Below, piece after piece: positions 1,570-36,331 of a DNA stretch of 36,331 nucleotides (the first letter of the stretch is position 1; every line of letters begins with the position of its first letter). The position numbers were made by a program, and so were the translations under genes. The notes under the pieces are model-generated. The model had not been told where the DNA came from. It did no database searches and saw nothing but the letters and a program-made list of their open reading frames with translations. This DNA is from a virus: the IMG/VR virus record IMGVR_UViG_3300027791_000001, positions 1 to 36,331 of that record. One strand, written 5' to 3'.

Positions 1570-1575
1570 CTTGAG

Positions 1576-5335: not shown

Positions 5336-6321
5336 AAAAAAGACTACTAATAACAGGGAGCGCAGGCTTCGTCGGATCTCATACGGCGAAGTGGGCATTA
5401 GAAAAAACAGACTGGGAAGTGGTCGGACTCGACTCTTTTCGTCATTTAGGCGACGCAGAGCGAGTCTCTGCAGATCTTCGATACTCGATGATCTGTCACG
5501 ATCTTAACGCTCCCATCTCGAAGCGAACAGCGTCTAGAATCGGACATATAGACTACATCATAAACTGCGCCTCGATCTCGCATGTAGACACGTCGATCGA
5601 AGATCCTATCTACGTCTGGGAATCAAACACTCGACTGATCGGCAACATTCTACACTACGCTCGCGAGCTTCCTAGCCTAGAGAAGTTTATCCACTGCTCG
5701 ACAGACGAAGTCTTCGGCTCTGCTTACGGAGACCACTGTCATCACGAGTGGGACGTCATCGCTCCGTCTAATCCCTACGCGGCATCTAAGGCGGCACAGG
5801 ACGCTCTATGCTTCGCCTACTGGAGAACATACGGAACTCCTATCGCGATCACGCATTGCATGAACATGATCGGCACGATGCAGGATCCGGAGAAGTATCT
5901 GCCGAAGATTGTCTCTCGCGTTCACAAGGGAGAATCGGTCACGGTTCACGGACAGCCGGACAAGGTAGGATCTAGAATGTATATCGACTGCAGGAACCTT
6001 GCCGACGCTTGGCTGTTCATGCTCCAAGAGGTAGACTTCGCCTGCTACGGCGAGCAACATTCTCGGATGACTAAGTTTAACATCGCAGGACTAGAGGAGA
6101 TCACGAACCTAGAACTCGCCCAGAAGATTGCTGATCGCATGGGAAAAGAACTCATCTACGAGTTTGTAGATTTCCACAAGACAAGAGCAGGACACGATCT
6201 TCGATACGCTCTAGACAGCAGTAAGATATACGAGGCAGGGTGGCGTCCTCCTATTGAGCTAGAGGAGACGTTCGATCAAGTGATCGACCATGTGAGGAAG
6301 CACGAAGCATGGCAGGAGTAA
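5332..6321 (+). CDS. NAD-dependent sugar-nucleotide epimerase/dehydratase (extended SDR, dTDP-glucose 4,6-dehydratase-like)
   Basis: N-terminal Rossmann motif ITGSAGFVGSH, STDEVFGS, catalytic YAASKAA (YxxxK), and NMIGTMQDPEKYLPK resembling the RmlB NNYGPYQFPEKLIP segment. Confidence 0.85.
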   Translation: MKKRLLITGSAGFVGSHTAKWALEKTDWEVVGLDSFRHLGDAERVSADLRYSMICHDLNAPISKRTASRIGHIDYIINCASISHVDTSIEDPIYVWESNTRLIGNILHYARELPSLEKFIHCSTDEVFGSAYGDHCHHEWDVIAPSNPYAASKAAQDALCFAYWRTYGTPIAITHCMNMIGTMQDPEKYLPKIVSRVHKGESVTVHGQPDKVGSRMYIDCRNLADAWLFMLQEVDFACYGEQHSRMTKFNIAGLEEITNLELAQKIADRMGKELIYEFVDFHKTRAGHDLRYALDSSKIYEAGWRPPIELEETFDQVIDHVRKHEAWQE

Positions 6322-6343
6322 ATTGACATAGAGGGTATTTTTA

Positions 6344-8182: not shown

Positions 8183-8197
8183 TAGTTGGATGCCTAT

Positions 8198-8998
8198 ATG
8201 AGTAAAAAATTACATTTCGTATCTGGTCTTCCAAGAGCTTGCTCAACGCTACTCTGCAATCTACTAGCACAGAATCCAAAGGTTCACGCTACTCCTACTA
8301 GTGCCTTGCACGAAATAGGCTACATCGCTCGGCAAGTTTTTCAAACTGAAGAAGCAAAAGCAGTAGATATGAAGAATGTCCTTGAGCCTATGTATCTGGA
8401 CTACGTCAAAGCTGGTTGCGAGAATGCTTTCAATAACATCACGGACAGACCTGTAATCGTGGACAAGTGCCGATCTTGGGTTGGTCATCTTGACCAGCTA
8501 TTTAAGGTTTGGGAGGACGCTAAGGTTCTTGTTCCTGTTCGTGACATTAGAGGCGTTCTGTCCAGTATGGAGAAAAAACGCAGACAGCATCCAGAGGTAT
8601 TCAATGGCATTGAGAAAGAGAATCCCCAAAACTGGACAACAATTGATAAACGGGTAAATGGATGGCTACAGAGTCCTCCTATCGGAATTGCTATTGAGAG
8701 ATTGCACGAAGCTAAGGAACGATTCGGAGATAAACTTATGTTTGTTCACGCTGAGGACTTAACTGAAAAACCTCAGCAAGTAATGAACCGAATTTGGGAG
8801 TATCTAGGCGAAGAGCAGTTTATTCACGATACTTCTAATGTAGAGCAATACACTCAAGAATACGATGTTGGTTTTCCCTACGGAGATCACGTTATTCGAC
8901 AAGAAATAAAACCTTTAAAAAAAGACTGGCACGAGATTCTTGGTCGTTCGCTTTCAGAACAACTTAACCAAAAATTTAACTGGATAAATAATTTATGA
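8198..8998 (+). CDS. Sulfotransferase family protein
   Basis: PAPS 5'-phosphosulfate-binding-like loop GLPRACSTLL near the N-terminus and a 3'-phosphate-binding-like VPVRDIRGVLSS. First in-frame ATG is at 8198; the track ORF opens at TTG 8186. Confidence 0.7.
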   Translation: MSKKLHFVSGLPRACSTLLCNLLAQNPKVHATPTSALHEIGYIARQVFQTEEAKAVDMKNVLEPMYLDYVKAGCENAFNNITDRPVIVDKCRSWVGHLDQLFKVWEDAKVLVPVRDIRGVLSSMEKKRRQHPEVFNGIEKENPQNWTTIDKRVNGWLQSPPIGIAIERLHEAKERFGDKLMFVHAEDLTEKPQQVMNRIWEYLGEEQFIHDTSNVEQYTQEYDVGFPYGDHVIRQEIKPLKKDWHEILGRSLSEQLNQKFNWINNL

Positions 8999-9381
8999 AA
9001 TATGCAGTAATTAACTCAAGGGGCAGAGTCCTTCGTTCGTCAAAAGATGAGTTCAAGTTCATCGCTGAAGGCAACAAAATGGTATCTATATCAAACGAAA
9101 AAGCTAAGCAGGTCGAAGCTTCAAGCGAACCGTTGTTCCTAGTTGAAGGAAACTTAATTACTTTAAAGGAGAAGTTATTTAATGATAACCCTGAAGCAAT
9201 AAAGGAGTCCTTACGTCCAGAACGCAATCGACTACTCGCTGAGTCCGATTGGACGCAGTTAAATAACTCACCGCTTGCCGAAGCCGAGGTATTCTCTTGG
9301 GCTGAATACCGTCAGAAGCTTCGCGACCTTACTGACAACATTGACAACAACGTCAAAGTAGAGTTTCCTTTAGCTCCATAG
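8995..9381 (+). CDS. Tail fibre assembly chaperone (Tfa-like)
   Basis: The C-terminal half RNRLLAESDWTQLNNSPLAEAEVFSWAEYRQKLRDL matches the hallmark motif of caudoviral tail fibre assembly proteins. ATGA-coupled. Confidence 0.6.
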   Translation: MKYAVINSRGRVLRSSKDEFKFIAEGNKMVSISNEKAKQVEASSEPLFLVEGNLITLKEKLFNDNPEAIKESLRPERNRLLAESDWTQLNNSPLAEAEVFSWAEYRQKLRDLTDNIDNNVKVEFPLAP

Positions 9382-19264: not shown

Positions 19265-19270
19265 TATGTA

Positions 19271-19297
19271 GCCTCTCGCGAAATCGAGGGGCTTTTT
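19271..19297 (+). terminator. Rho-independent terminator
   Basis: GCCTCTCG-cgaaat-CGAGGGGC (8-bp stem, one G.U) followed by TTTTT. Confidence 0.7.
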
Positions 19298-19311
19298 AGT
19301 ATCTAAAAGAA

Positions 19312-19415
19312 AGTGAATAAAATGTGAATATGCTATTGACATGCCTCTAATCGGTCTTTTGTATCTGTCATATCGAAGCGGTTCTCGCCTAGAGCAAACA
19401 CGAAAAAAACACGAC
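19312..19415 (+). promoter_or_regulatory. Conserved promoter + 5' leader cassette, copy 2
   Basis: GTGAA x2 spaced 11 bp apart, TTGACA at 19336-19341, 17 nt, TTGTAT, then CTGTCATATCGAAGCGGTTCTCGCCTAGAG...ACACGACATG. Confidence 0.55.
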
Positions 19416-22607: not shown

Positions 22608-23372
22608 ATGAACAAGATGTCACTCAACTCCAAAGGCTTCGACAGCATGCTGCGAACCTTGAAGAAGAGGACAGGGGCTAGCTTCGAGGACGTGCTAAAA
22701 GCTACTACCGGATCTATCCTAGAGGGAGCCGCTCGAAAGACGGGGAAGTCTAAGCCTGCCATCATCACGGCGGCAGTAAAGAAGTCGCTCTCCACTCGCT
22801 TCGTCTCTTCTGCCGGAGACAAGATACGGAAAGCTAGAGACGGGTCTTTGATCTTTAAGCCAAGAGGGACAGGCGCAGGCAGATGGATTAGGATCCGAAG
22901 CGACTACGCTCTCAACGCAATCAGCGCGAAGAATCCTTCCGGTCGGACTTTAGCGGCTAAGTTCAAGGGCAGAGTCAATAAGGCTCTGGGCGAGCTTAGA
23001 AGACTGCAGGCTAAGATCATTAAGGATAAGAAGACAAGGATCGCGGCATCACAGAAGAGCTTTCTAGAGATCATGAAGAAGCTAAAGATCCCCATCAAGT
23101 CTACTCGCGGACTAGGAGCTGCAATGAAAGCGAAGATCGGCGGTAATCACGCGCAAGCCGTGTCTGGAAGGATCTACAAAAACAAGGATGACGCCGCAAT
23201 CCTCATAAAGAGTCGATCTCAGTCTGCACTTAATCATAGAGCGGGAGGCATTCGAGCCTTCGCCGCCGCCTTTAACGGTCAAACTAAAGCCTTTGCGACT
23301 GCGGCGGCTAAGGATCTAGAGGCTTATGCAAAAAAATTCGCGACAAAAAATGGCTTCGCTGTTAAAAAATGA
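22608..23372 (+). CDS. Highly basic Lys/Ala-rich protein (254 aa) between terS and terL
   Basis: Long ORF, very K/R/A-rich. No motif recognised. Confidence 0.55.
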   Translation: MNKMSLNSKGFDSMLRTLKKRTGASFEDVLKATTGSILEGAARKTGKSKPAIITAAVKKSLSTRFVSSAGDKIRKARDGSLIFKPRGTGAGRWIRIRSDYALNAISAKNPSGRTLAAKFKGRVNKALGELRRLQAKIIKDKKTRIAASQKSFLEIMKKLKIPIKSTRGLGAAMKAKIGGNHAQAVSGRIYKNKDDAAILIKSRSQSALNHRAGGIRAFAAAFNGQTKAFATAAAKDLEAYAKKFATKNGFAVKK

Positions 23373-25173
23373 GGTAGGGAAACTCTTCTCTCCTCGGCGT
23401 CTGAAGTCTCCTGTAGACTGGGCGTTCGATAACTGCGTTCTGAGAGACAATGTCTCCGAGCTTCCCGGATCTCTGAAGGTCTTTCCCTACGCTCAACAGC
23501 CTCTCAACGATCTGATCGATCCTACGATCAGCAAGATCACTCTCTGCTGGGGATCGCAGTCGAGCAAGACTACGACAATGTATGCAGGCATCGGATATCT
23601 CCTCAGCGAGTTTCCGAAGGACACGCTCTGGATCATGCCGAGCGCAGAGAACGCTCGTAACTTCTCGAAGGGTCGATGGCTTCCGTTCATCGACGACTGT
23701 AAGCCTCTCAAGGATCAATGTCCTTTGAGCGCAGCCACAGGCAGAGTCGATAGCGACAAGATCACGAACATGCGGCAGGAGTTCCTGTCATGCACTCTAA
23801 CCTTCGCCGGAGCAGGCTCCGAGAATAACGTGAAGTCGGCTCCGGTCGCCTATCTAGTTCTGGACGAGATCGACGAGATCGATCCGGACATTCGCCTAGC
23901 TGCGCTCGAACGTATTAAGGGTCGGCGAGAATATAAGATCATCCAGACAAGCACTCCCAAAGAAGAGACGGGAGGGATCTGGGAAGAGTATCTCTACGGC
24001 GATCAGCGCAGATACTACATGCCTTGTCCGCACTGCGAAGAGTTCATACAGTTCGAGTGGAGGCAGAAAGACAAGGAAGGAGCCTCTCGATACTCGATCA
24101 CGTTCGACGACGAAGCGAAGCTCGAAGACGGGAGCTACGACTTCGATCTCGTAGCATCGACAGCAGCTTATGTCTGTCCTTGCTGTAGCGGCAAGATCCT
24201 CGACGCTCATAAGCCTACGATGATTAAAAGCGGAGAGTGGAGATCTCAGAATCCTAACGCTCCCGCGAATCATCGAAGCTATCATCTTAACTCTCTCTAC
24301 GCTCCGGCGATGACTTTCTCCGCGCTCATCATTAACTGGCTACAGGTAAGCTCATCGATGCACGGTCTTCGCAAGTTCGTGCAAGGTAACTTGGCAGAGC
24401 CGTGGAAAGATGACTGGGCGAACCAAGAGCAGGCAGATGCAAACGAACTCGAACTCGACTACGAGCGCGGCGACCTTCGAGGCGAGTATCGAGTCATGGG
24501 AGTCGATACGCAGACAGACTCTTTCTGGTTCGTCGTTCGCGGCTTCGACCGAGATGGGACGAGCTATCTAATCGACTGCGGTCAAGTCGCCTCTTTCTCC
24601 GAGTTAGATCTTATCTACGATCAGCACAAAGCTCACGCAGCTATCATCGACTGCGCGGGCGATAGAACTTCTGAGATCTACGAGGATGTCTTTCGCCGTC
24701 GCTCTAAATGGTTCGGCTCTCGCGGCTGGAAGAACCTTCAAGGCGATCAGCCATATCGACTGCAGATGAAAGATCCTTTTACCGGAGACACGAAGGGTCG
24801 AGGCGGACGATCTAAGATCCGATACCTTCACGTCAATAAGAGCATATACGAGGAGGAGCTTTCTCGTCTTCGATCTCGACAGCTCTCCGGCTTCCACACT
24901 TTCACAGACACTCCGTCGGTCTACTACGATCAGCTCTTCTCGACTTACTGGACAAAGGAGACAGACCGAAGCGGTCACATTAAAGTCGTGAAGAAACTGA
25001 AGCGCAGCAAGGGAGATCACTTATGGGACTGCGAGATCCTCGCTCGCGCTCTGTCCAAGTTTATCGGCATAGCTCGAATCGATCGAGGAGATATGCCGAC
25101 AATGTTTGACGAGCGTCCTCCCAGAAAGCGCGACGCATCGACGCGAAGCCGCAGTTCTACGGGCTTTTGGTAG
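23326..25173 (+). CDS. terL: Terminase large subunit, lambda GpA family
   Basis: FPYAQQPLNDL..ITLCWGSQSSKTT (P-loop)..LWIMPSAENARNFSKGRWLPFIDD, Walker B YLVLDEIDE, and a Cys4 finger CPHCEEF...CPCCSG, all typical of GpA-type terminases. The start may be ATG 23350. Confidence 0.85.
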   Translation: MQKNSRQKMASLLKNEVGKLFSPRRLKSPVDWAFDNCVLRDNVSELPGSLKVFPYAQQPLNDLIDPTISKITLCWGSQSSKTTTMYAGIGYLLSEFPKDTLWIMPSAENARNFSKGRWLPFIDDCKPLKDQCPLSAATGRVDSDKITNMRQEFLSCTLTFAGAGSENNVKSAPVAYLVLDEIDEIDPDIRLAALERIKGRREYKIIQTSTPKEETGGIWEEYLYGDQRRYYMPCPHCEEFIQFEWRQKDKEGASRYSITFDDEAKLEDGSYDFDLVASTAAYVCPCCSGKILDAHKPTMIKSGEWRSQNPNAPANHRSYHLNSLYAPAMTFSALIINWLQVSSSMHGLRKFVQGNLAEPWKDDWANQEQADANELELDYERGDLRGEYRVMGVDTQTDSFWFVVRGFDRDGTSYLIDCGQVASFSELDLIYDQHKAHAAIIDCAGDRTSEIYEDVFRRRSKWFGSRGWKNLQGDQPYRLQMKDPFTGDTKGRGGRSKIRYLHVNKSIYEEELSRLRSRQLSGFHTFTDTPSVYYDQLFSTYWTKETDRSGHIKVVKKLKRSKGDHLWDCEILARALSKFIGIARIDRGDMPTMFDERPPRKRDASTRSRSSTGFW

Positions 25174-25184
25174 GTATAAAAAAA

Positions 25185-25291
25185 AGTGAAAAAATAGTGA
25201 AATAAGGTATTGACGTCCTCAAACCTGTCGTTCTTTATGTGTTCTATCGAAGCGATTAACGCCTAGAAAAAACCTAATAAAAAACACGACT
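25185..25291 (+). promoter_or_regulatory. Conserved promoter + 5' leader cassette, copy 3
   Basis: GTGAA x2 (11 bp apart), TTGACG at 25210-25215, 17 nt, CTTTAT, ..TCTATCGAAGCGATTAACGCCTAGAAAAAACCTAATAAAAAACACGACTATG. Confidence 0.55.
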
Positions 25292-25528
25292 ATGAAAAAC
25301 ACTACTTACGCTACCGTTTCTATTCACTACTCAGATCATGTCTACGTCGCGACTGTCAGACGCATCGAGGACATCGTCCGCTATCTCAAAAGCGAGACTC
25401 GCCGCTTCGCAGTATCGAGCGACTTCAAGGTCTTCAACGCGAAGAGCAAGTCATTCGAGAACAAGCTCGAAGATGCGCTGTTCTGCGATAACTCTTTCGA
25501 CAATCTCGTCGGCATCTTTGAACTCTAA
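25292..25528 (+). CDS. Hypothetical protein (78 aa), cassette cargo
   Basis: ATG directly after the leader. No motif recognised. Confidence 0.6.
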   Translation: MKNTTYATVSIHYSDHVYVATVRRIEDIVRYLKSETRRFAVSSDFKVFNAKSKSFENKLEDALFCDNSFDNLVGIFEL

Positions 25529-25567
25529 AAAATTTTGTGTCATAACGTGTAACAAATAATAGGTTAA

Positions 25568-25602
25568 GCCTCGCTCGGAGTCGTGTCTGAGCGGGGCTTT
25601 TT
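25568..25602 (+). terminator. Rho-independent terminator
   Basis: GCCTCGCTC-(12-nt loop)-GAGCGGGGC followed by TTTTT. Confidence 0.65.
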
Positions 25603-25616
25603 CGTGCCTAAAAATA

Positions 25617-25719
25617 AGTGAAAGAAAAGTGAATAAGGTATTGACTCGACGATCTTATTAGTTTTCTATCTTTCATATCGAAGCGATTAACGCCTAGAAA
25701 AAACCTAAAAACACGACTC
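25617..25719 (+). promoter_or_regulatory. Conserved promoter + 5' leader cassette, copy 4
   Basis: GTGAA x2 (11 bp apart), TTGACT at 25641-25646, 17 nt, TTCTAT, CTTTCATATCGAAGCGATTAACGCCTAGAAAAAACCTAAAAACACGACTCATG. Confidence 0.55.
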
Positions 25720-26442
25720 ATGAATCACGACACTATCAAAAAAAGCGACGCCTACAAAAACGACGACAACGCCTGCACAGTAGTAACTCTCGCCGTTATC
25801 GCAGGCATCAAGTTCGAGGACGCTCAAGCTGTTATGGCAGACGCCGGTCGCAAACTGAATCAAGGATGCCAGAGAAGAATCTACGATTCGGTCTACAGCA
25901 AGTTTTTCAAGTTCAACAAGAGCGGTCTAGATTCTTACAATGGCAAAACAGTTTGCCAGTTCATGAAGGGCGCACGGAAGTTCCTCAAAAATAACACGGT
26001 CGCGGTTCTTACAAGCGATCACATCTTCGCCGTAAAGAACGGCAAGATCGAAGACTGGATGAGCGCGAATCGCAGACATCGCATCGAGAGCATCTACGTA
26101 GTCGAGGAGACACTCCAAGACGTAGACTGTGCAGACGCTCTCGTAAGAGGTCGCAAGATCGTAGCGGACAGCCTAGCGAAGAGCCAAGCGAAGCTCGAAA
26201 AGAAGAAGGCTAGCTTCACTACTCGCGTCTACAACAAACACGAGAAGAGCTTCTGCGATTTCAAGTATACCTTCAAGATGGTCGCGAAGACCGGCGACGT
26301 GAAGGTCAAGTTCGTCCGCTACGCAGATAATGCCGATTGGCTCGACGCTTTCCTCAACAAGTATGCCGAGCATTACACGATCGATGCCGACGTTCAGAGA
26401 AACAGTCACAAACTTCCGGAGGTAAGCGTCTCTAAAGTATAG
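25720..26442 (+). CDS. Hypothetical protein (240 aa), cassette cargo; possible papain-like Cys/His/Asp fold at the N-terminus
   Basis: NDDNACTVVTLAV (Cys19) ... TSDHIFAVKNGKIEDW (His, then Asp/Glu) has the spacing typical of C39-like/papain-fold domains. By eye only. Confidence 0.3.
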   Translation: MNHDTIKKSDAYKNDDNACTVVTLAVIAGIKFEDAQAVMADAGRKLNQGCQRRIYDSVYSKFFKFNKSGLDSYNGKTVCQFMKGARKFLKNNTVAVLTSDHIFAVKNGKIEDWMSANRRHRIESIYVVEETLQDVDCADALVRGRKIVADSLAKSQAKLEKKKASFTTRVYNKHEKSFCDFKYTFKMVAKTGDVKVKFVRYADNADWLDAFLNKYAEHYTIDADVQRNSHKLPEVSVSKV

Positions 26443-26546
26443 TGAAAAAAAAGTGAATAAGGCATTGACTCGATCAAATTCATCCTACTTTATCTTTCAT
26501 ATCGGAGCGATTCACGCCTCGAATAACCTAAAAAAAACACACGACT
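26441..26546 (+). promoter_or_regulatory. Conserved promoter + 5' leader cassette, copy 5
   Basis: Begins inside the stop codon of the upstream gene. GTGAA x2 (11 bp apart), TTGACT at 26465-26470, 17 nt, CTTTAT, CTTTCATATCGGAGCGATTCACGCCTCGAATAACCTAAAAAAAACACACGACTATG. Confidence 0.55.
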
Positions 26547-26873
26547 ATGAAACTCAAAAACTACTCAACACTTAAATCAAACTGGTCTGGCGAGAGCGTA
26601 GACTTCAAAGCTAACGACACTCGTCTCGCATGCAAAGAGTATGACAAGGACATGACTATCGTTCATTCGTTCGACGCTAATAACGACGGAAGCAAGTATG
26701 ACGTCGAGATCCTAAATTACACAGACAAGGACGGCGGCTCCTTCAAGGCTACTAAATTCGTAAGCGAAGAAAAGTGGACTGTCCTAGACGACGACTACAA
26801 TAATTACTCATTCTGCTTCGAGTCAGATTGTCCTCACGAAGCAGTCATCAAGATGATCGCTAACGTATGCTAG
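26547..26873 (+). CDS. Hypothetical protein (108 aa), cassette cargo
   Basis: ATG directly after the leader. Acidic. No motif recognised. Confidence 0.6.
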   Translation: MKLKNYSTLKSNWSGESVDFKANDTRLACKEYDKDMTIVHSFDANNDGSKYDVEILNYTDKDGGSFKATKFVSEEKWTVLDDDYNNYSFCFESDCPHEAVIKMIANVC

Positions 26874-26897
26874 AGCTTTAGCACTCCACACTCCAAA

Positions 26898-26926
26898 GCC
26901 TCTCCGCGAAAGCAGGGAGGCTTTTT
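26898..26926 (+). terminator. Rho-independent terminator with GAAA tetraloop
   Basis: GCCTCTCCGC-GAAA-GCAGGGAGGC (one internal mismatch) followed by TTTTT. Confidence 0.75.
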
Positions 26927-26953
26927 CGTATATTGACATAGGAGCCTTTGACG

Positions 26954-27196
26954 ATGGCGTCTACTACTACTACAGCTCAACTGATCGCGATACGAGACAA
27001 GCTCTTGACTGCGATCTTAAAACTCGCAGAGGAAGGAGTCACCTCCTACAGCATCGGAGATCAGACTTTCTCCCTAGCAGACGTCGGAAGTCTGATCACA
27101 CAGGTCGAGAAGCTAGACCGGCTCATCGCTCTGAAGGATAAGACTCTCGGAGGTCGAGGTCGCAATCGAATCACGCTTCAGAATTTTAATGGATAA
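26954..27196 (+). CDS. gpW-like head-tail joining protein
   Basis: ~80 aa, immediately upstream of a lambda-type portal. AQLIAIRDKLLTAILKLAEEGVTSYSIGDQTFSLADVGSLITQVEKLDRLIA resembles the gpW helix-hairpin-helix pattern. SD-like TAGGAG 9 nt upstream of ATG 26954. Confidence 0.5.
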   Translation: MASTTTTAQLIAIRDKLLTAILKLAEEGVTSYSIGDQTFSLADVGSLITQVEKLDRLIALKDKTLGGRGRNRITLQNFNG

Positions 27197-28655
27197 AAAA
27201 ACGAAAAAACCGAGCAGAGTCTCATTCGCCTTCAAGCAATTTGTCAGAGCCTTTCAAGGCTACGACGCAGTTCGCAATACTCGATACAGAGCAAAGCGAG
27301 GCAACCTTCCGGTGAGATCCGAAGAGGTCGAGCTTAACGAATACGACAGAGATCGCATGATCTCGACATGCTTAGAGTTCCGCAGGAACAATCCTGTAGT
27401 CGCCTCGCTGTCTAGACTTCGCAAGGCAGACATCGTAGGCAGGGGAATCATCCCGCAACCATCGACAGGAAACGACGACACAGACGCTCATATTCTCGAA
27501 TGCTGGAACAAGTTCGCAGAGTCTCCAGAAGCCACAGGCATGATGGACATGCGCGAGATGCAGCAGCAGATGATCGACTCGCTCCTATTCTACGGCGACT
27601 GCGGTCTGATCGTAGGCAAGGATCAAGTTCAATTCGTGGACGGATCTCGTATCGGAAATCCTAGCGGAGCGTTTACATCGAACGAACAATCAGAATTTCA
27701 GAACGGGGTAGAGATCGACAAGATCGGTAAGCCTGTCGCCTACGTCGTCGGTAATCGCGTCGCAGGTAGTCTAAAAGACACGCAGGTCATACCGGCTAGG
27801 GACTTTATCCCTTTCCTACGTCGCGTCCGTCCTAACCAATACAGAGGCGTTCCAGAGCTATCGTCAGTAATTAACACTTTACAGGACTGCGACGAGTATG
27901 ATCGCGTCGAGATGATGGCGGCTAAAGTCAGCGCATCTCTGGCGGTCGCAGTTAAGCGCGAGAACTCCTACGAGTTCGAGCTACAGAATCGACTAGACGG
28001 AAGCGAGCAGGACGCTCTGGGCAATCTAGAAGAGTTCCAGCCCGGACGCTTTCACTACTTAGAGCCGGGCGAAGACATCAGCGTCATCGGCGCGAACGGA
28101 CGTCCGAACGTAGACGGGATCCAGTGGGTCTCCTATCTGCTACGCAAGGTCGGAAGCGCGGTCGGCATTCCTCTAGAGTTCTTACTTATGGAGATCGGCG
28201 GCAGCTCCTTCTCTGCATCTCAAGGCGTCGTCCTCCAGTATCAGCAAACAGTCGAGAGCTATCAGACGGATCTTATCCGTATCATGAGTCGGCTCTACCG
28301 CCGCTGGCTCTCCCAGAAGATCGCTAGCGAGAAGATCGACGTATCCTTAGCGGCTAACCCTTTCGCGGTTCGCTGGCAGCGTCCGGCGTTCCGATGGATC
28401 AATCGCGCGGCGCAGGTTAAGGCAGACATGGAATACTTCAGAGCTGGAGCTATGTCGCTCGACGACATCACGGCTCCCTTCGGCTATACTGCCGAGGAGG
28501 TTCTTATGAGAAAGGCGCAGAACATTAAGAAGGCTCAAGAGATCGCCGAAGGCGCAGGTCTCGAATGGCGAGAGCTAATCAATCCATTCCCCACATCGAT
28601 GAGCGGCAACTACTCAGAGGTCGTGTCGAGCGGAGACGCAGAGCCGGAAGTCTAG
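27189..28655 (+). CDS. Portal protein (lambda gpB / Phage_portal_2 type)
   Basis: 488 aa. The N-terminal QGYDAVRNTRYRAKRG...DRDRMISTCLEFRRNNPVVASL pattern is typical of lambda-family portals. Position fits between gpW and the protease. Confidence 0.8.
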   Translation: MDKKTKKPSRVSFAFKQFVRAFQGYDAVRNTRYRAKRGNLPVRSEEVELNEYDRDRMISTCLEFRRNNPVVASLSRLRKADIVGRGIIPQPSTGNDDTDAHILECWNKFAESPEATGMMDMREMQQQMIDSLLFYGDCGLIVGKDQVQFVDGSRIGNPSGAFTSNEQSEFQNGVEIDKIGKPVAYVVGNRVAGSLKDTQVIPARDFIPFLRRVRPNQYRGVPELSSVINTLQDCDEYDRVEMMAAKVSASLAVAVKRENSYEFELQNRLDGSEQDALGNLEEFQPGRFHYLEPGEDISVIGANGRPNVDGIQWVSYLLRKVGSAVGIPLEFLLMEIGGSSFSASQGVVLQYQQTVESYQTDLIRIMSRLYRRWLSQKIASEKIDVSLAANPFAVRWQRPAFRWINRAAQVKADMEYFRAGAMSLDDITAPFGYTAEEVLMRKAQNIKKAQEIAEGAGLEWRELINPFPTSMSGNYSEVVSSGDAEPEV

Positions 28656-28658
28656 ATC

Positions 28659-30212
28659 ATGGCAGAGACTTACAACGACTATCCTCAAGGAGCTACGAAT
28701 AATGCGAAGCGAGCCTTAAAGTATAAGGACGAGAATGCAGACAACAAATGCGGAACTCCTGTAGGATGGGCGCGAGCTAATCAATTAGCCAAGCGCGAGA
28801 AGATCAGTCGAGAGACTATCGCTCGCATGGCATCCTTCAAACGACATCAGAAGAGCAAGGACGTTCCCTACTCCGAAGGATGCGGAGGTCTTATGTGGGA
28901 CGCTTGGGGAGGCTCCTCTGGAGTGAACTGGGCGATCTCTAAACTAAAGAAAATTGACAAAGCGGCTCAAAGTATGTCGAGACAATTTGCATTCGGAGTA
29001 GAGTCAAACAGAGAGACTCAAGTCAATAACGAGGACGGGACTATGCTCTCGGTCGCTCTCATATCAGTGGGGTCGGCTTTAGGTCACGGACTCTACGTGG
29101 ATGCTAAGTCTCTAGAGACGATCATCGATGAGCTAGAAGACACTAAACTTCCTGCCTATATAACGCACAGGGGCGCACTCTTCGAGGATCGCCTAACTCG
29201 CGAGATAGGCATGTTCGACAATTTTCGTATCGAAGGAGATCGTCTGCTCGGAGACTTCCAAGCGTTCGACTCGTTTCGAGAGGACGACAGTCGCAAATAC
29301 AATCGACTGTTCGAGATGGCTGAGAAGATGCCAGAGCGATTCGGACTCAGTATCGTGTTTGAAGCAGACATCACATGGGCGACTCCGGACGGAGACGTTC
29401 CTATGGGACGCCTTCCCAATAATGACAGCGATCGTCTATACGACGAAAACAATCCTCCAGAGGATGCGCTGTTTGAATATCCATCTATTCGCGTCGAGGA
29501 AGTTTCTAGCGCGGACTTCGTAGACTCTCCTGCCGCTAATCAGCGAGGGCTATTTTCTATAATTGACACTAAACCTAATTACAAGATGACAAAAGCAGAA
29601 CTAACTGAACTTAACGAAAAGCTGAAACAGGAGAATGAAACTCTCGCGCTCAGTGTAACCGACTCCGAGGCTCGCGTAGAAGAGCTAGAATTTAAACTTA
29701 AAGACAGCTCTGCTGCTCTCGTAGAAGACGGCGAAGAAGTCGTCGAGGACGAAGAGGCTGAAGTCGAAGAAGTCGTCGAAGACGAAGAGGCTAAAGTCGA
29801 AGAAGAGCTAGTCGAAGAAGACGAGGTCGTCGAAGAAGATGCCGAAGTCGAAGAAGAGGTCGTCGTCGAAGACGAAGAAAGCTCACTCGAAGAACTCAAA
29901 AAGGAGATTGCTTCAAAGCTCGAAGAGATCGCCGGACTAAATTCCAAGCTCGAAGAGATGGAAAAAGAGATGAGCGAAGATCAAGAGAAGATGGAGGCAA
30001 AAGCCTCGAAGCTATCCTCGAAGGTCGCTACTCTAGAAAAACTTATCGAAGGCTCTGATCTCATACAGACATCTGTAGGAGATGAGGTCTACGAACCAAG
30101 CAAAGCCAATCGCTCAAAAGTGATCTCGGAATTTGCTAAAGAAAACAACATCTCAGAGTTCGCAGCGACTCTTCGCCTCGGCAAAGATCGTCCAGAACTC
30201 TTTCAAATCTAA
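28659..30212 (+). CDS. Prohead protease (HK97/S78-like) fused to a C-terminal acidic coiled-coil scaffold-like domain, with an extra N-terminal domain
   Basis: LPAYITHRG...EIGMFDNFRIEGDRLLGDF...RFGLSIVFE resembles the His and Ser regions of S78 proteases. The C-terminal ~190 aa are coiled coil with (E/D/V)-rich repeats. N-terminal AKRALKYKDE...GTPVGWARANQLAKREKIS..TIARMASFKRH...WGGSSGVNWA is a recurrent phage head-module domain. Confidence 0.55.
   Translation: MAETYNDYPQGATNNAKRALKYKDENADNKCGTPVGWARANQLAKREKISRETIARMASFKRHQKSKDVPYSEGCGGLMWDAWGGSSGVNWAISKLKKIDKAAQSMSRQFAFGVESNRETQVNNEDGTMLSVALISVGSALGHGLYVDAKSLETIIDELEDTKLPAYITHRGALFEDRLTREIGMFDNFRIEGDRLLGDFQAFDSFREDDSRKYNRLFEMAEKMPERFGLSIVFEADITWATPDGDVPMGRLPNNDSDRLYDENNPPEDALFEYPSIRVEEVSSADFVDSPAANQRGLFSIIDTKPNYKMTKAELTELNEKLKQENETLALSVTDSEARVEELEFKLKDSSAALVEDGEEVVEDEEAEVEEVVEDEEAKVEEELVEEDEVVEEDAEVEEEVVVEDEESSLEELKKEIASKLEEIAGLNSKLEEMEKEMSEDQEKMEAKASKLSSKVATLEKLIEGSDLIQTSVGDEVYEPSKANRSKVISEFAKENNISEFAATLRLGKDRPELFQI
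29716..29880. repeat. Degenerate GAA/GAC/GTC-rich tandem repeats encoding an acidic E/D/V tract
   Basis: gaagaagtcgtcga(g/a)gacgaagaggct(g/a)aagtc appears twice in tandem, followed by further related units. Confidence 0.8.
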
Positions 30213-30621: not shown

Positions 30622-31539
30622 ATGAGCTTATACACATCAGCCACATTCAATCCAGTTCTCTCCGAGGCTCTTAACAAGATCGGCGAAAACCAATTCGTAG
30701 GAACTAAGATCCTTCCTGTTCGCGATGTCGCGACCAAGAGCGGTCAGTATCCTGTTTTCGGCGACGATCAGTTCGATCTCAACGCTTCCAAAGTTCGCGC
30801 TGCAGGCTCTGCCTTCGCACGTCGCGATTTCGCATACGGTCAGCAAGACTACTCTTGCAAGCAATACGCTCTCGAAGGTCTACTTCCTGACGAAGACGTA
30901 ACGCAAGCAAGCGACGACGGCATCTCTGATTCCGCAGCAGCTATCGCTAAGAAGCTACAGCGCGACATCATGGTAGGTCACGAGCTTCGTGTAGCTTCCC
31001 TAATGGCAGCAGCAGGCTTCAACAGCACAAACGCTACACAAACTATGGCTACTAGCGCGACAGCTAAACCTATCGCGGATATCCAGAACGCTGTAGAGCG
31101 TCTTAACGGTAACGGCTTCTACGATGGCATCGCGCTCATCATGGAGACTTCTCTGTTCAACGCTATGCTCAACACAGACGACGTCCGTGGAATCTTCAAC
31201 GGCAACGGTCAATACAGCAATCGTCAAGTCATCCTCGACGCTCTAGGTGTTAATGAAATCATCATCACTCCTACTCGCTACAACAGCGCAGCCAAGGGAG
31301 CCACAGCATCTCGCTCCAAGATCTGGTCTACAAATTCCTACTTCGTAGGTCAAGTAGCAGGAGGCGACTTCGCTAACGGAGGCTTCGGTCGCACACTATC
31401 CTACAGCGCAGACGGCGGCGTCTTCTCTGCAGAGCAGTATCGCGATGAGCCAATCAAGAGCGATGTCCTTCGCGTCTTCAACAGCGTAGACGAGTCGATC
31501 ATCAATACTAACGCCTGCGAAAAGATCGCAAGCGCGTAG
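30622..31539 (+). CDS. Major capsid protein
   Basis: 305 aa, follows the decoration gene and precedes the strongest terminator. G-poor, A-rich leader. The lambda-like order W-B-C-D-E supports the call; the specific family is not verified. Confidence 0.7.
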   Translation: MSLYTSATFNPVLSEALNKIGENQFVGTKILPVRDVATKSGQYPVFGDDQFDLNASKVRAAGSAFARRDFAYGQQDYSCKQYALEGLLPDEDVTQASDDGISDSAAAIAKKLQRDIMVGHELRVASLMAAAGFNSTNATQTMATSATAKPIADIQNAVERLNGNGFYDGIALIMETSLFNAMLNTDDVRGIFNGNGQYSNRQVILDALGVNEIIITPTRYNSAAKGATASRSKIWSTNSYFVGQVAGGDFANGGFGRTLSYSADGGVFSAEQYRDEPIKSDVLRVFNSVDESIINTNACEKIASA

Positions 31540-31561
31540 TCGATATAGCTATCACTTATCA

Positions 31562-31592
31562 GCCTCTCCCGCTAGACGGGAGGGGCTTTTTT
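31562..31592 (+). terminator. Rho-independent terminator
   Basis: GCCTCTCCCG-ctaga-CGGGAGGGGC (10-bp stem) followed by TTTTTT. Confidence 0.85.
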
Positions 31593-31605
31593 GTGCCTAA
31601 AATAA

Positions 31606-31709
31606 AGTGAAAAAAAGGTGAAATATGCTATTGACGGGGGTCATTTTATACTACTTTATCTGTCATATCGAAGCGAGAAACGCCGAGAATAACCTAAAAA
31701 AACACGACA
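31606..31709 (+). promoter_or_regulatory. Conserved promoter + 5' leader cassette, copy 6
   Basis: GTGAA x2 (11 bp apart), TTGACG at 31631-31636, 17 nt, CTTTAT, CTGTCATATCGAAGCGAGAAACGCCGAGAATAACCTAAAAAAACACGACAATG. Confidence 0.55.
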
Positions 31710-32096
31710 ATGAAAATCACAGCACAACAAGTCTCAACTCAATCCTCACACGAAGTTCTATACTCCGATCCAGAATGTGCGGATATGGATAATCCTCGCG
31801 GAGATATCGTTCGCCCAGTAGCTCGCGTTTTAATCGAGCTAGATGACGGATCTCGCTATGTTCATGATCGCGGCTTTTCTAATCCTGTAGACGGAGACGA
31901 TAAGGAGGTAGAAGCTAAGGTCGAAGCTCTCGCGGATCGAGTTTCTAAAGCAGGCGAGATAAATCCAGAGCATTGGGTCGAGACTTATGCGAGATACGGA
32001 TCAGCCGCTTGGCGCGGCGAAGAATGTCAGCGTCGTCAGAACTTTGAAATCGCTCGTCTTAGTGGAGACGAAGAAGAGATGGATCGCTACTGCTAA
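31710..32096 (+). CDS. Hypothetical protein (128 aa), cassette cargo inside the structural module
   Basis: ATG directly after the leader, bracketed by two terminators. No motif recognised. Confidence 0.6.
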   Translation: MKITAQQVSTQSSHEVLYSDPECADMDNPRGDIVRPVARVLIELDDGSRYVHDRGFSNPVDGDDKEVEAKVEALADRVSKAGEINPEHWVETYARYGSAAWRGEECQRRQNFEIARLSGDEEEMDRYC

Positions 32097-32118
32097 TCTC
32101 TCAAAAATATAAACAAGA

Positions 32119-32971: not shown

Positions 32972-33029
32972 AATTGACAGCAGATCTATAATTGAACCTT
33001 TCAACCTAAAAAACTAACTTTAATATATT

Positions 33030-33368
33030 ATGGCAGTAATACCAGATGGTGCGCAACTATTCGCAATCGAAACTCCTCTTTTCAGTGCAATGGTCGTCGA
33101 GAGCTTCTCGCTCACGACTCCGGCTAATCGCGTAGACCTAGACAACGGAGACGGCGAGCCACTAGGCTCTACGCTCGTTCCTCAGCGTCAAGAGGCATCG
33201 CTTACAGTTCAGATGGGGGATACTGAATCTCCTCCTGCTATCGGAACGAAAGTCTCGTATGGCTCCTACGAAATATACGTCACAAGCGTAGATCTCACAG
33301 AGGCTCAGGCGGACTATCGTCGATATTCCATCACAGGATTCGTAGAGATCGAAGCACCCACAACTTAA
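33030..33368 (+). CDS. Tube-like major tail protein candidate, paralog A (112 aa)
   Basis: Position upstream of chaperone + tape measure. A/T-rich SD-less leader like the capsid gene. Paralogous to 33389..33733. Confidence 0.35.
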   Translation: MAVIPDGAQLFAIETPLFSAMVVESFSLTTPANRVDLDNGDGEPLGSTLVPQRQEASLTVQMGDTESPPAIGTKVSYGSYEIYVTSVDLTEAQADYRRYSITGFVEIEAPTT

Positions 33369-33388
33369 AAATTTAAATTATATATATT

Positions 33389-33733
33389 ATGGCAGTAATA
33401 CAAGACGGTGAACAACTATTTGGAATAGAGACAAAGGAAATCACCCTTGCTGGCGGCGGTCAATACGTCGTCGAGAGCTTCTCTCTAACGTCTCCCTCTA
33501 ATCGCGTAGACCTAGACAACGGAGACGGAGAGGCTCTAGGCTCTACGATAGTTCCTCAGCGTCAAGAGGCATCGATCACAATTCAAGTAGGTGACCAAAC
33601 AACCTCTCCCGTGATCGGAGACACGGCAAGCTATGCGGGGAAAACTATTGTTATCTCCGGCATAGATCGCACGGAGAATCAAGCAGACTATCGCCGCTTT
33701 ACTCTCTCAGGATACGTCAAGATAAACGTTTAA
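33389..33733 (+). CDS. Tube-like major tail protein candidate, paralog B (114 aa)
   Basis: Shares MAVI.DG.QLF.IET, VVESFSLT.P.NRVDLDNGDGE.LGST.VPQRQEAS.T.Q.GD and E.QADYRR with paralog A. The central ~115 nt are nearly identical at DNA level. Confidence 0.35.
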   Translation: MAVIQDGEQLFGIETKEITLAGGGQYVVESFSLTSPSNRVDLDNGDGEALGSTIVPQRQEASITIQVGDQTTSPVIGDTASYAGKTIVISGIDRTENQADYRRFTLSGYVKINV

Positions 33734-34346: not shown

Positions 34347-36331
34347 TTTTTCACTACTAGCAAAGATAGGACTAGACTCCAAAGGCTTTCAAAAGGGTCT
34401 AGACAAAGCTAAAACTGGAGTCAGTAAGTTTGGCAGGGGCGTTTTAAACGCGAGCAACAAGCTCGCTAAAATGGGGTTCGGAGCCGCCGCCGCAGGTTTT
34501 GCGCTGCTCTCTAAGAACGCCATCGCTCTCGGCTCCGAGCTTTCAGACATAGCAAACAACACGGGATTCGCCACAGAAAAGTTTCAAGTCTTTAGGGGCG
34601 CACTTATCGACGCCGGAGGTGCTGCCAAGAGTATGGAGAAGGCTATCGTCATCATGCAGAAGGCGGTCGTTCAAGGCTCTGAGGGTCTGACTACTTATCA
34701 GCGAGCCTTCGAGCGTATAGGTCTGAACGTAGACGATCTCAGAAAGATGCGTCCGGAGGATCAGTTCGAGACGATAGGAAAAGCCATCGCAGGAGCGACA
34801 GATCAGCAGGGAGCTTTAACTGCAGCGATCGAGATCTTCGGACAGAAGAACGCAGGCAGACTCATAGAGGTTTTCAAGCGACTCGACAAAGATGGCTACG
34901 GAAAGATGGCTAAAGATATCGAGAAAGCCTACGGAATCATGGACGCGGAGACTCAAAAAGCTCTCGACAAGGCGGCAGATACGATAGAGCGATTTAAGAA
35001 TAAAGCTACGATTCGAGTAGGAGAGTTGATAGCGGGAGAAGCGGACGGAGCCGCGCTAAAAATTCTAGGACTTTCGATTGCCAAAGCGGGCGCACAGCTA
35101 GGCGTAGGAATGATAAACGGAATAGCGGATAGTGTCCGTGCCGCTCGCGAAGCTTTCGGAGCTTTCGCTGACTTCACATCAAATGCCTTCCTTACAAGTT
35201 TACGACTAATGTGGAAGACTTTCCAGATAGATTGGTTCGAGGGACTAAACAAGATGATCGCTGGGTTAAATAAGATCCCCGGAGTAGAGATGGAGCCTAT
35301 AAATACAGACAAACTTTACGACGATTTAGATAAGGGCATAAAGGATCAGGGCAAATCTTATAACGAATTTTTTCAGGCTAGAATGGATCAAGGTTCGGAG
35401 TTCGATATGGAGAATCGTCTCGACTACAGTCCGAGCGAGTTTTACGATAAAGAGATAGAGAACCAGAAAGCGATACTCGCAGCATCTAGAAAAAAGCAGG
35501 AGGAACTCGAAAATTTAGGAGGCGAAGGCGGCACAGGAGGATCCGGAGGATCCGAAGGAGGCGCAGGAGGATCCGGAGGCGAAGGCGGCACAGGATCCGG
35601 AGGAGGCGATCCCGAGGCAGACGAAGAAAAGAGGAAGGAAAAAATAAAAGCTCTAGAAAAGGAGATTAACGACATGCAGCTCGAAGCTATTCGAGCGCAA
35701 GCCAAAGGAGACGAGGATGCACAATCCTCTCTGGAGAAAAGAGCAGAGCTGTCTAAGAAAATCTTAGATATCATGAGAAAATATAACGTCTCGATGGAGG
35801 AGGCTTCAAGTCTCGCCGAGCAGACTGCAGAAAAGCCAGAGGAGCCAACAGCAGACGATAAGAGATCGAAGAAGATCGAGGGTCTGGAGAAGCAGATAGA
35901 AGATATGGAGCTACAGGCTATACGCGCTCAAGCTAATGGCGACGAGAAGGGTCAGGCTGCTATGGAGAGAAGGGTAGATCTAGCAAACAGCATCGTAGAC
36001 ATCATGAACGATCACAATGTCTCGCAGGAAGAAGCCACTCGCATAGCCAATAAAATGAGAGATGCAGGAGAAGCGAAAGATGCTCCTAGGAACGAACTAA
36101 CGGGAAGAGATCTTCAAGATGCAGCCAATCTAGCAGGCAAAGGACAGGCTGGAGATCCAGCCTCCTTTATGGGAGGTAAAGATATTCGATTTGAGAGAGA
36201 CGGAAAAGGACAGGCTGGAGATCAAGCCTCCTTTCTGGGAGGTAAAGATATTCGATTTGAGAGAGACGGAAAAGGTAATTTTCAACAGTTTGTTGGCGGT
36301 AGCAAAGGCAAGGTTTTTACCGAAGACCAAA
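34339..36331 (+). CDS. Tail tape measure protein (runs off the window end and continues at 1..225; 696 aa in total)
   Basis: Frame translated by hand from ATG 34339 with no stop to 36331; absent from the track because no stop lies in the linear window. TP901-type N-terminal core (AKMGFGAAAAGFALLSKNAIALGSELSDIANNTGF...), Gly-rich linker, internal 76-aa and 22-aa repeats. Confidence 0.85.
   Translation, partial: MANFSLLAKIGLDSKGFQKGLDKAKTGVSKFGRGVLNASNKLAKMGFGAAAAGFALLSKNAIALGSELSDIANNTGFATEKFQVFRGALIDAGGAAKSMEKAIVIMQKAVVQGSEGLTTYQRAFERIGLNVDDLRKMRPEDQFETIGKAIAGATDQQGALTAAIEIFGQKNAGRLIEVFKRLDKDGYGKMAKDIEKAYGIMDAETQKALDKAADTIERFKNKATIRVGELIAGEADGAALKILGLSIAKAGAQLGVGMINGIADSVRAAREAFGAFADFTSNAFLTSLRLMWKTFQIDWFEGLNKMIAGLNKIPGVEMEPINTDKLYDDLDKGIKDQGKSYNEFFQARMDQGSEFDMENRLDYSPSEFYDKEIENQKAILAASRKKQEELENLGGEGGTGGSGGSEGGAGGSGGEGGTGSGGGDPEADEEKRKEKIKALEKEINDMQLEAIRAQAKGDEDAQSSLEKRAELSKKILDIMRKYNVSMEEASSLAEQTAEKPEEPTADDKRSKKIEGLEKQIEDMELQAIRAQANGDEKGQAAMERRVDLANSIVDIMNDHNVSQEEATRIANKMRDAGEAKDAPRNELTGRDLQDAANLAGKGQAGDPASFMGGKDIRFERDGKGQAGDQASFLGGKDIRFERDGKGNFQQFVGGSKGKVFTEDQ
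36139..36270. repeat. 2 x 66-bp tandem repeat (22 aa: KGQAGD(P/Q)ASF(M/L)GGKDIRFERDG) at the contig junction
   Basis: Units at 36139-36204 and 36205-36270 differ at 2 positions. The second unit starts exactly where the terminal overlap (window position 1) starts. Confidence 0.9.
36205..36331. repeat. Terminal overlap: identical to 1..127
   Basis: See the feature at 1..127. Confidence 0.95.

Follow-up and report, generated by a model that had tools for sequence, protein, structure and literature searches.

The viral DNA examined here is IMG/VR record IMGVR_UViG_3300027791_000001, which was analysed over its full length of 36,331 nucleotides (the window). It raises the question of what occupies the 1.78 kb (positions 25174-26953) between the stop codon of the large terminase gene terL (25173) and the start codon of a gpW-like head-tail adaptor gene (26954). 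The gap contains open reading frames (ORFs) of 78, 240 and 108 amino acids (aa), named o78, o240 and o108. Each of them starts exactly at the 3′ end of a repeated cassette of about 115 nt (copies P1, P2 and P3). A preliminary description of the DNA had presented the locus as an unusual split of normally contiguous genes by three cassette-driven orphan genes with the architecture of morons. Repeat, profile and fold analyses returned the same coordinates, ORF sizes, cassettes and two terminators. The comparison with relatives pointed to another reading of the locus: the gap is probably a clade-wide hyperplastic accessory island at the terL/gpW junction, composed of cassette-fused genes that are exchanged at the cassette.

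The terL-gpW island among relatives

Synteny was compared across 30 loci of relatives that carried both terL and gpW, with terL 77-100% identical to that of the window. A gap of 1086-2904 bp was present in all 30 loci and the two genes were adjacent in none. Throughout this clade, separation of the two genes is the ancestral and regular state. It does not go back to a recent insertion, nor is it unusual, as had been proposed. A cassette directly after the terL stop codon was detectable in 24 loci. The contents of the island formed a mosaic, with about 25 families of plus-strand ORFs in about 20 distinct arrangements. o78 (family F5) and o240 (family F7) occurred in the six closest loci only. 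o108 (family F2) was the most persistent island family, present in 11 of the 30 loci and mostly the last gene before gpW.

Gene content varied even among close relatives. Relatives with a 91% identical TerL carried none of the three genes, and where TerL was 84-92% and the portal protein 79-86% identical, all three were absent and unrelated ORFs were found instead. L034 and L035 had a TerL 99% and a portal protein 100% identical to those of the window, yet their islands differed. They held two extra ORFs between P1 and o78 and a 59-aa ORF after o108, and their o108 allele was 66% identical. The preliminary description would have been undermined by relatives universally carrying the three genes without the cassettes; the genes were not universal and the cassettes were present. 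The comparisons support o78, o240 and o108 as putatively dispensable accessory cargo at a hypervariable site.

Within the window, the hairpins after o78 and after o108 were far more stable than shuffled controls. The o240 unit had no terminator and the o240 stop codon lay within cassette P3. The G+C content of the island genes was 45-47%, compared with 51-52% in the flanks. A 73-aa ORF at 25338-25559 overlaps o78 in another frame. It is open in close relatives and lacks the leader motif described below, and we take it for a probable by-product of o78.

The commonest island family, F1 (274-314 aa), occurred in 19 of the 30 loci and was absent from the window. It was present in L003, L006, L009, L012, L014, L016, L020, L021, L028, L032 and others. 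The F1 proteins had zinc-ribbon-like motifs (CxxCGGxG/CxxCxGxG) and a strongly conserved C-terminal part (...DGRxCWGSVPSKL...FAFFKRP). Ten island families of the relatives, F1 included, were scanned against Pfam and gave no match.

The repeated cassette and the exchange of genes

A profile search with the cassette returned exactly six copies in the window (nhmmer E 1e-22 to 1e-25), and a 23-nt core matched five times against zero expected from 100 shuffles. The copies outside the island headed lysis/replication, pre-terminase and tail units (Table 1), so the cassette is not special to the three island genes. The core pattern was found in only 37 IMG/VR stretches. Among the 32 that were new to the search, 27 matched the full profile and five the core only. 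The cassette is specific to the clade of this phage.

The anatomy of the cassette was derived from 45 distinct copies of the window and its relatives. The 5′ end reads TAAAA, followed by two GnGAA direct repeats spaced 11 bp start-to-start in an A-rich tract. The middle consists of an invariant (A/C)TTGAC, a freely varying 17-nt spacer, a box of the form YTYTAT, which reads CTTTAT or TTCTAT within the island, and 7 nt. An invariant ATCG then opens an imperfect 8-5-8 palindrome, TCGnnGCG-N5-CGCnnCGA. The 3′ end is an A-rich stretch that closes with AAAAAYACGAC, 0-2 nt and the ATG. It has no Shine-Dalgarno sequence and carries A at -3 and -6. In P1, the GTGAA repeats lie at 25186-25190 and 25197-25201, the -35 element TTGACG at 25210-25215 and, after the 17-nt spacer, the -10-like CTTTAT at 25233-25238. 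The palindrome of P1, TCGAAGCG-ATTAA-CGCCTAGA, occupies 25247-25267, and its A-rich leader without Shine-Dalgarno sequence ends with AAAAACACGACT directly before the ATG. A reading of the GTGAA repeats as DnaA boxes was dropped, as only TTCAC is fixed and its spacing to TTAT varies. A 98-aa protein of the window (14777-15073) matched PF08299 (E 2.4e-8), the helix-turn-helix domain at the C-terminus of DnaA, and is adjoined by a weakly matching helix-turn-helix protein (15070-15360). Either protein could be a candidate binder of the GTGAA repeats or the palindrome.

The cassette is read as a promoter with a 5′ leader because its copies are always intergenic and end at a start codon, because a hairpin precedes four of the six window copies (terminator-like with a U-run at 19303, 25608 and 31597, without a U-run at 11934) and because relatives L064, L072 and L073 contain outward-facing cassette pairs, with each cassette leading into an ORF. 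The A-rich tract and a perfect -35 element were present in all six window copies. The cassette would be a promoter for the host RNA polymerase plus a 5′ leader and would give strong expression of the first gene downstream, while the terminators after o78 and o108 would attenuate transcription. The palindrome, located approximately at the expected transcription start, could form a stabilising 5′ hairpin, or it could serve as the operator of a regulator that binds as a dimer. Standard pairs were found in 88% of its cells and compensatory changes in three of eight pairs. The observed covariation values were reached by 1 of 500 and 14 of 500 shuffles, and slid registers collapsed to 26-39% pairing. 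The leader hairpin of P3 had a folding energy of -6.6 kcal/mol. A promoter for a phage-encoded RNA polymerase was set aside, as none of the ORFs that were scanned was recognised as a polymerase gene, although a 915-aa ORF at 1576-4323 had no match at all. The cassette pairs of L072 (77-282) and L073 (1365-1564) are back to back, and that of L064 (4181-4663) is about 280 bp apart. Island families are represented among the ORFs at the L073 and L072 pairs by a homologue of o78 and by F4, a family of 170 aa.

Several observations weigh against this reading. A sigma-70 consensus scan called none of the cassettes as a promoter. At position 2 of the -10-like box (CTTTAT/TTCTAT) the key A is missing, and conservation is lower in the -10 region than in the blocks TTGAC and ATCG..GCG. 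The support from covariation is modest, with three compensatory pairs, and the palindrome folds weakly in P1 and P2 (-2.9 kcal/mol), so that it may be a protein operator instead of an RNA hairpin. Promoter activity is what we infer from the DNA. The same features would suit an alternative in which the cassettes are post-transcriptional or regulatory leaders (RNA-processing or stabilising elements, translational operators or regulator sites) within one long transcript from terS/terL to the head genes, and in which the three ORFs are expressed only as part of that operon. The best conserved blocks are the palindrome and the leader end and not the -10 region, no terminator lies before P1 or P3, there is some covariation in the palindrome, and the leader end stands alone, without a full cassette, before many island genes. 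However, TTGAC is invariant and lies a fixed 17 nt from a TAT-containing box across a variable spacer, and an A-rich tract resembling an UP element is present. Strong terminators with a U-run stand directly before three of the six window cassettes, and the genes downstream would otherwise be without a promoter. The outward-facing pairs of the relatives cannot all share one transcript. We therefore regard a purely leader-like function as unlikely and retain the promoter-plus-leader reading.

No cassette of its own heads the block from gpW to the major capsid gene, which would therefore be transcribed by read-through of the terminator at 26897-26926, from P3 or from further upstream. The sole nearby TTGACA, 15 nt before the gpW ATG, was rejected as a gpW promoter for being too close. 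By read-through, P3 would probably serve as promoter for gpW to capsid as well, and the island units are therefore not clearly autonomous. With such read-through, the cassettes would be the ordinary operon promoters of the phage, and the island would be the part of the head transcription unit nearest to the promoter.

Junctions between gene units were placed by pairwise alignment of the window with close relatives. A 465-bp indel relative to L034 is bounded by window positions 25278-25295, which comprise the leader end and the ATG. Relative to L001, a 362-bp indel lies at 26556, just 3′ of the o108 ATG. A 249-bp indel was located at the o108 stop codon. The leader-end motif stood 5′ of 52 of 62 distinct island ORFs of the relatives, compared with 7 of 48 window genes, which were the six cassette-headed genes and the ORF at 12460. 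Island genes without a full cassette keep the leader end and are separated by a few short, reused types of linker, for example ACGGGGCAGAGCATCCTACACTCTAA... or a GCCTCTTCGGAGGC hairpin. From this breakpoint pattern, we infer homologous recombination at the cassette or leader as the cause. The cassette, and especially its leader end, would act as portable homology, and recombination there would insert, delete and swap gene units while sparing terL and gpW. Breakpoints at a conserved motif would also be expected if the motif were merely required for translation of the inserted gene, which counts against recombination at the cassette.

The cassette and ORF128 unit at 31597-32115 is missing in L039, and 538-847 extra bases follow it in L045 and L037, so other cassette sites are also indel hot spots. 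The region at 11934-13240 contains a cassette followed by ORF112, ORF122 and the lysozyme/transglycosylase-like ORF120 (weak EmtA/AggPromo matches), and it has the appearance of a second hyperplastic region. The same 45 nt (CTAATCCTCAACCCAGTTTTCGGATCTGCTCAAAACCGAACTTTT) recur exactly 3′ of ORF112 (12384) and of ORF122 (12825). The ORF at 12460 has the leader-end motif and no full cassette.

Two further explanations of the island were weighed. Its units could be integron-like, site-specific mobile cassettes, with the palindrome as the recombination site of a dedicated recombinase. The fixed 8-5-8 geometry, with invariant outer and inner base pairs in every full cassette, and the occurrence of units in both orientations in relatives fit this model, but the mapped junctions lie 25-45 nt 3′ of the palindrome (at the leader or ATG) or at a stop codon and none falls in the palindrome itself. 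Many island genes with a leader end lack the palindrome, and the scans of window proteins, which did not include every ORF, brought up neither an integrase nor a recombinase. This makes a site-specific system highly improbable. It is also very unlikely, if slightly less so, that o78, o240 and o108 are conserved and required parts of packaging or head assembly, such as connector, decoration or assembly factors. That idea draws on the universal position of the island within a structural module and on the o108 family, usually placed directly before gpW in its 11 loci. It conflicts with the absence of all three genes from the relatives with 84-92% TerL and 79-86% portal identity, with the differing gene number and the divergent o108 allele at 99% identity, and with the three proteins matching no structural PHROG family. 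The accessory island exchanged at the cassette remains the favoured interpretation.

The closest analogue is the PeSL (promoter-early stem-loop) cassettes, which occur in hyperplastic regions of T4-type phages. They combine a strong sigma-70-like promoter with a terminator stem-loop and, on the upstream side, an AT-rich tract, and they flank ORFans (PMC2839356, PMC4122927), and recombination between PeSL copies deletes, inserts and swaps ORFans (Arbiol et al. 2010, PMC2839356; Comeau et al. 2014, PMC4122927). Both systems would share a short repeated composite of terminator stem-loop, AT-rich tract 5′ of the -35 element, sigma-70-like promoter and translation start. In both, there are many copies per genome flanking ORFans in regions that vary among close relatives, and indel or replacement junctions lie inside the repeated element (here at 25278-25295 and about 26556; the P6 unit at 31597 is lost in L039). 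The present case differs in its 36-kb genome with a lambda-like head module, as opposed to a 170-kb T4-like myovirus, and in the position of the island within the packaging/head block. The cassette is longer here, with a conserved leader of about 45 nt that contains the palindrome and an A-rich start without Shine-Dalgarno sequence. Its -10 box is atypical, the terminator part accompanies only some copies (three of six with a U-run, one more without), and the same cassette also heads core operons.

A classic moron is an insert between two genes that are adjacent in relatives. Morons of lambdoid phages were reportedly treated by Juhala and co-workers in 2000 and by Cumby and co-workers in 2012. 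They are also summarised in bioRxiv 10.1101/2024.10.15.618418. The island resembles them in holding extra genes with promoter- and terminator-like signals between structural genes, variably present in relatives and slightly lower in G+C than their flanks. It differs in that terL and gpW are adjacent in no relative, that the promoter element is the general cassette of the phage and was not brought in with the gene, that the o240 unit lacks a terminator and that no lysogeny genes were seen. The moron interpretation is upheld for variably present accessory genes; it does not extend to flanks that are never adjacent, to a promoter-like cassette of general use or to units that are not clearly autonomous. 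The window shares a GpA-type TerL (PF05876, PF20454) and a lambda-family portal protein (PF05136) with the lambda Nu1-A-W-B block. The 80-aa protein 5′ of the portal gene matched phrog_118 and no Pfam family.

The island proteins and a putative cysteine hydrolase

In the database searches, o78 and o108 are clade-restricted ORFans without predictable activity. The homologues of o78 were 87-91% identical and the sole ones in a database of 5.8 billion proteins; a 59% identical homologue was located 3′ of a cassette in relative L073. o78 had no match in Pfam, PHROG, PADLOC or NCBIfam. In a codon-position test, the counts of its variable sites were 8/6/11. o78 is probably a real gene, and the coding status of o78 and o240 rests on the existence of homologues. 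Homologues of o108 were 61-99% identical and found only in the clade. In other relatives, the corresponding position is occupied by 97-aa proteins that share 25% identity with o108 (pairwise E 2e-6). Searches of Pfam, PHROGs, NCBIfam and PADLOC with o108 gave nothing usable, with only sub-threshold Pfam matches (DUF4367, E 0.0026).

The whole length of o240 was matched by six close clusters only. When 1.84 billion cluster representatives were searched with a profile, 772 proteins matched at E ≤0.001, nearly all of them 125-220 aa long and matching o240 residues 1-135 only. By profile similarity, the N-terminal domain (approximately residues 1-135) is a member of a large uncharacterised phage family. 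The orphan status claimed for the three genes thus holds for o78 and o108 and not for this domain. Pfam, NCBIfam and PADLOC gave nothing usable for o240, and only phrog_3754, a family without assigned function, was matched (E 1e-4). The family as a whole has no Pfam model, and a sequence-based profile search of the PDB found no relative.

Cys19, Gly43, Arg44, His101 and Asp112 were invariant in 40 diverse members that were 23-48% identical to o240, and Trp113, Gly108 and Thr77 were nearly invariant. The Cys19/His/Asp pattern of the preliminary description is confirmed by this alignment. The AF2 model of the N-terminal domain was confident (pLDDT 94.7, pTM 0.88). Cys19 starts the helix 19-28 and His101 starts the strand 102-106, a modelled placement that would fit the usual papain-type arrangement. 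The better ranked of the weak PDB matches in Foldseek were mostly papain-fold cysteine peptidases, namely 9f5t, 8adc, 5xda, 2j7q, 7cmd, 6hv6, 4qbb and 6ii0. They comprise the BpJOS ubiquitin clippase, viral-tegument-like deubiquitinases (DUBs), UfSP, the M48 DUB, PLpro, PaTox, FMDV Lpro and MCF. The fold neighbours in BFVD were all uncharacterised phage proteins (Acidovorax ACP17, Pseudomonas ITTPL, PhiJL001 gp45, Cellulophaga phiST and Nodularia phages). In Acidovorax phage ACP17, the o240 homologue has small hypothetical genes as its neighbours. Membership in the Josephin family was dropped, as hhalign of the o240 family against an approximate sequence of the ataxin-3 Josephin domain gave no similarity.

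With its invariant residues, confident model and mostly papain-fold weak matches, the N-terminal domain is read as a Cys-His-Asp hydrolase of a new, minimal type, to which we give a better than even chance. Like the clan CA papain-fold peptidases (BpJOS 9f5t, viral-tegument-like DUBs 8adc, UfSP 5xda), which gave its best though weak fold matches, it has the order Cys...His...Asp and, in the model, a helix that begins at the Cys and a beta-strand that begins at the His. Unlike them, it is much smaller (about 130 aa) and contains an invariant Gly-Arg without obvious counterpart. The layout of Cys-helix and His-strand in the model would fit the papain-type resemblance that had been suggested, but no significant fold match or sequence or profile similarity to the clan was found. 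Foldseek with the N-terminal domain against the PDB reached a best E of 0.11, a probability of 0.25-0.38 and TM scores of 0.27-0.38, which speaks against the hydrolase reading; the full-length model gave nothing. As a hydrolase, o240 would be cysteine-dependent, with a Cys19-His101-Asp112 triad supplemented by the invariant Arg44, and its C-terminal domain would possibly bind the target. The latter domain (approximately residues 135-240) is clade-specific and also occurs as the stand-alone protein P0007, which would fit a targeting or regulatory domain.

The island cargo would be non-essential and adaptive, and putative roles of its genes in host take-over or counter-defence are plausible. Counting against such roles, the PADLOC defence models did not match o78, o240 or o108. 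The literature search revealed no described o240-like family and no phage deubiquitinase acting against defence. A more far-reaching proposal, which we consider improbable, is that the N-terminal domains are phage-wide minimal (about 130 aa) papain-fold hydrolases, either peptidases or deubiquitinase-type deconjugating enzymes, directed against host immunity, and that the island is a cassette-rearranged counter-defence arsenal. If this were true, the substrates may include ubiquitin-like conjugation systems of host immunity.

Genome setting and implications

The whole window represents a complete phage genome of 36 kb, and bases 1-127 are repeated exactly at 36205-36331. With this 127-nt terminal direct repeat, the genome is either circularly assembled or terminally redundant. 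All credible genes are on the + strand. The gene order in Table 1 was derived from PHROG and Pfam scans that did not cover every window ORF. The replication genes 3′ of the block at 11934 encode an exonuclease, a RuvC-like resolvase, a methyltransferase and a primase/helicase. The gpW-like gene has AGGAG 8 nt upstream of its ATG and lies just 5′ of the portal gene, with which it overlaps; its product was 81-100% identical in all relatives.

Table 1. Features of the island, its borders and the rest of the window.
Feature	Position	Strand	Remarks
Large terminase, GpA type	23326..25173	+	Left island border; PF05876 E 4.9e-41, PF20454 E 1.7e-23, phrog_15 E 8e-95
Cassette P1	25177..25291	+	Repeat family D1/D4; nhmmer E 1e-24
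o78, 78 aa	25292..25528	+	ORF, clade-restricted ORFan
Terminator-like hairpin and U-run after o78	25568..25602	+	Fold of 25560-25612: -28.2 kcal/mol, z -5.0, 0/200 shuffles as stable
Cassette P2	25608..25719	+	nhmmer E 2e-22; -35 TTGACT 25641-25646, -10-like TTCTAT 25664-25669, palindrome 25678-25698
o240, 240 aa	25720..26442	+	Two-domain protein
Cassette P3	26432..26546	+	nhmmer E 5e-25; overlaps last 11 nt of o240; -35 TTGACT 26465-26470, -10-like CTTTAT 26488-26493, palindrome 26502-26522
o108, 108 aa	26547..26873	+	Island family F2
Terminator-like hairpin and U-run between o108 and gpW	26897..26926	+	Fold of 26890-26935: -18.4 kcal/mol, z -4.1
gpW-like head-tail adaptor, 80 aa	26954..27196	+	Right island border; phrog_118 E 5e-6
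Portal protein, lambda family	27189..28655	+	PF05136 E 6.2e-55
517-aa protein with acidic repeats	3′ of portal		No significant protease/scaffold match
Scaffold/decoration-like gene	Between 517-aa gene and major capsid gene
Major capsid gene	30622-31539		Followed by terminator, cassette (31597) and tail genes
Cassette copy	31597..31709	+	After capsid-gene terminator 31561-31587; heads ORF128 and tail genes
Tail and fibre genes	230-9381	+	PHROG/Pfam scans
Nucleotide metabolism genes	After tail/fibre block, before cassette-headed block at 11934		PHROG/Pfam scans
Cassette copy	11934..12048	+	nhmmer E 6e-22; heads ORF112, ORF122 and lysozyme-like ORF120, then replication genes
Cassette-headed block	From 11934		Two ORFans and lysozyme-like gene, then replication genes
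Cassette copy (second cassette)	19303..19415	+	After terminator 19270-19293; heads small-ORF block upstream of terS
terS	22017		Followed by 254-aa ORF, then terL

No phage in GenBank had a protein at least 30% identical to the window TerL, and no close cultured phage was found. Related contigs in IMG/VR numbered 36, with a TerL 77-99% identical to that of the window, and marine assemblies from Tara, ENA and JGI contained the same proteins, there on contigs 35-37 kb long. A search for prophages and hosts in 185,579 genomes found no relative, and Rfam and tRNA scans of the window gave no matches. Most gene starts, those of the capsid and portal genes included, had no Shine-Dalgarno sequence and were A/T-rich before the ATG; a minority had GGAG or GAGG. 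This weak reliance on Shine-Dalgarno sequences, together with the A-rich starts, hints at a host that largely initiates translation without Shine-Dalgarno pairing.

Several other repeats and insertions were observed. A + strand ORF with Gly-rich repeats, from about 34350 to the end, is absent from the ORF list because it apparently spans the terminal junction. The acidic repeats of the 517-aa protein (29717-29887, repeat family D2) are rich in Glu/Asp and have a 9-18-nt period. A tandem duplication at 33002-33733 comprises the ORFs 33030-33368 (112 aa) and 33389-33733 (114 aa) with their upstream regions at 81-87% DNA identity; these ORFs (repeat families D10 and D12) had no PHROG match. The tail region contains a nucleotide-sugar epimerase gene (phrog_540, E 5e-75; within 5332-8182), followed by a 612-aa protein with internal 66- and 204-nt repeats at 7442-8006, which is possibly a repeat-containing receptor-binding protein. 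The portal gene and the 517-aa gene are 4 bp apart in the window (28546-28665), and the more distant relatives L047, L052 and L054 carry 365-944 bp of inserted DNA between them.

In the literature searched, repeated promoter/leader cassettes that reshuffle ORFans were documented for large T4-type phages only. The present comparison suggests the same strategy in a small, abundant and uncultured marine phage lineage, inside its packaging/head module. The cassette and the leader end (AAAAAYACGAC-N-ATG) would mark the mobile accessory genes of this lineage, and the accessory gene pool could therefore be collected from metagenomes. The N-terminal domain family of o240, with its invariant Cys-His-Asp(+Arg), is a candidate for biochemistry and for anti-defence screens.

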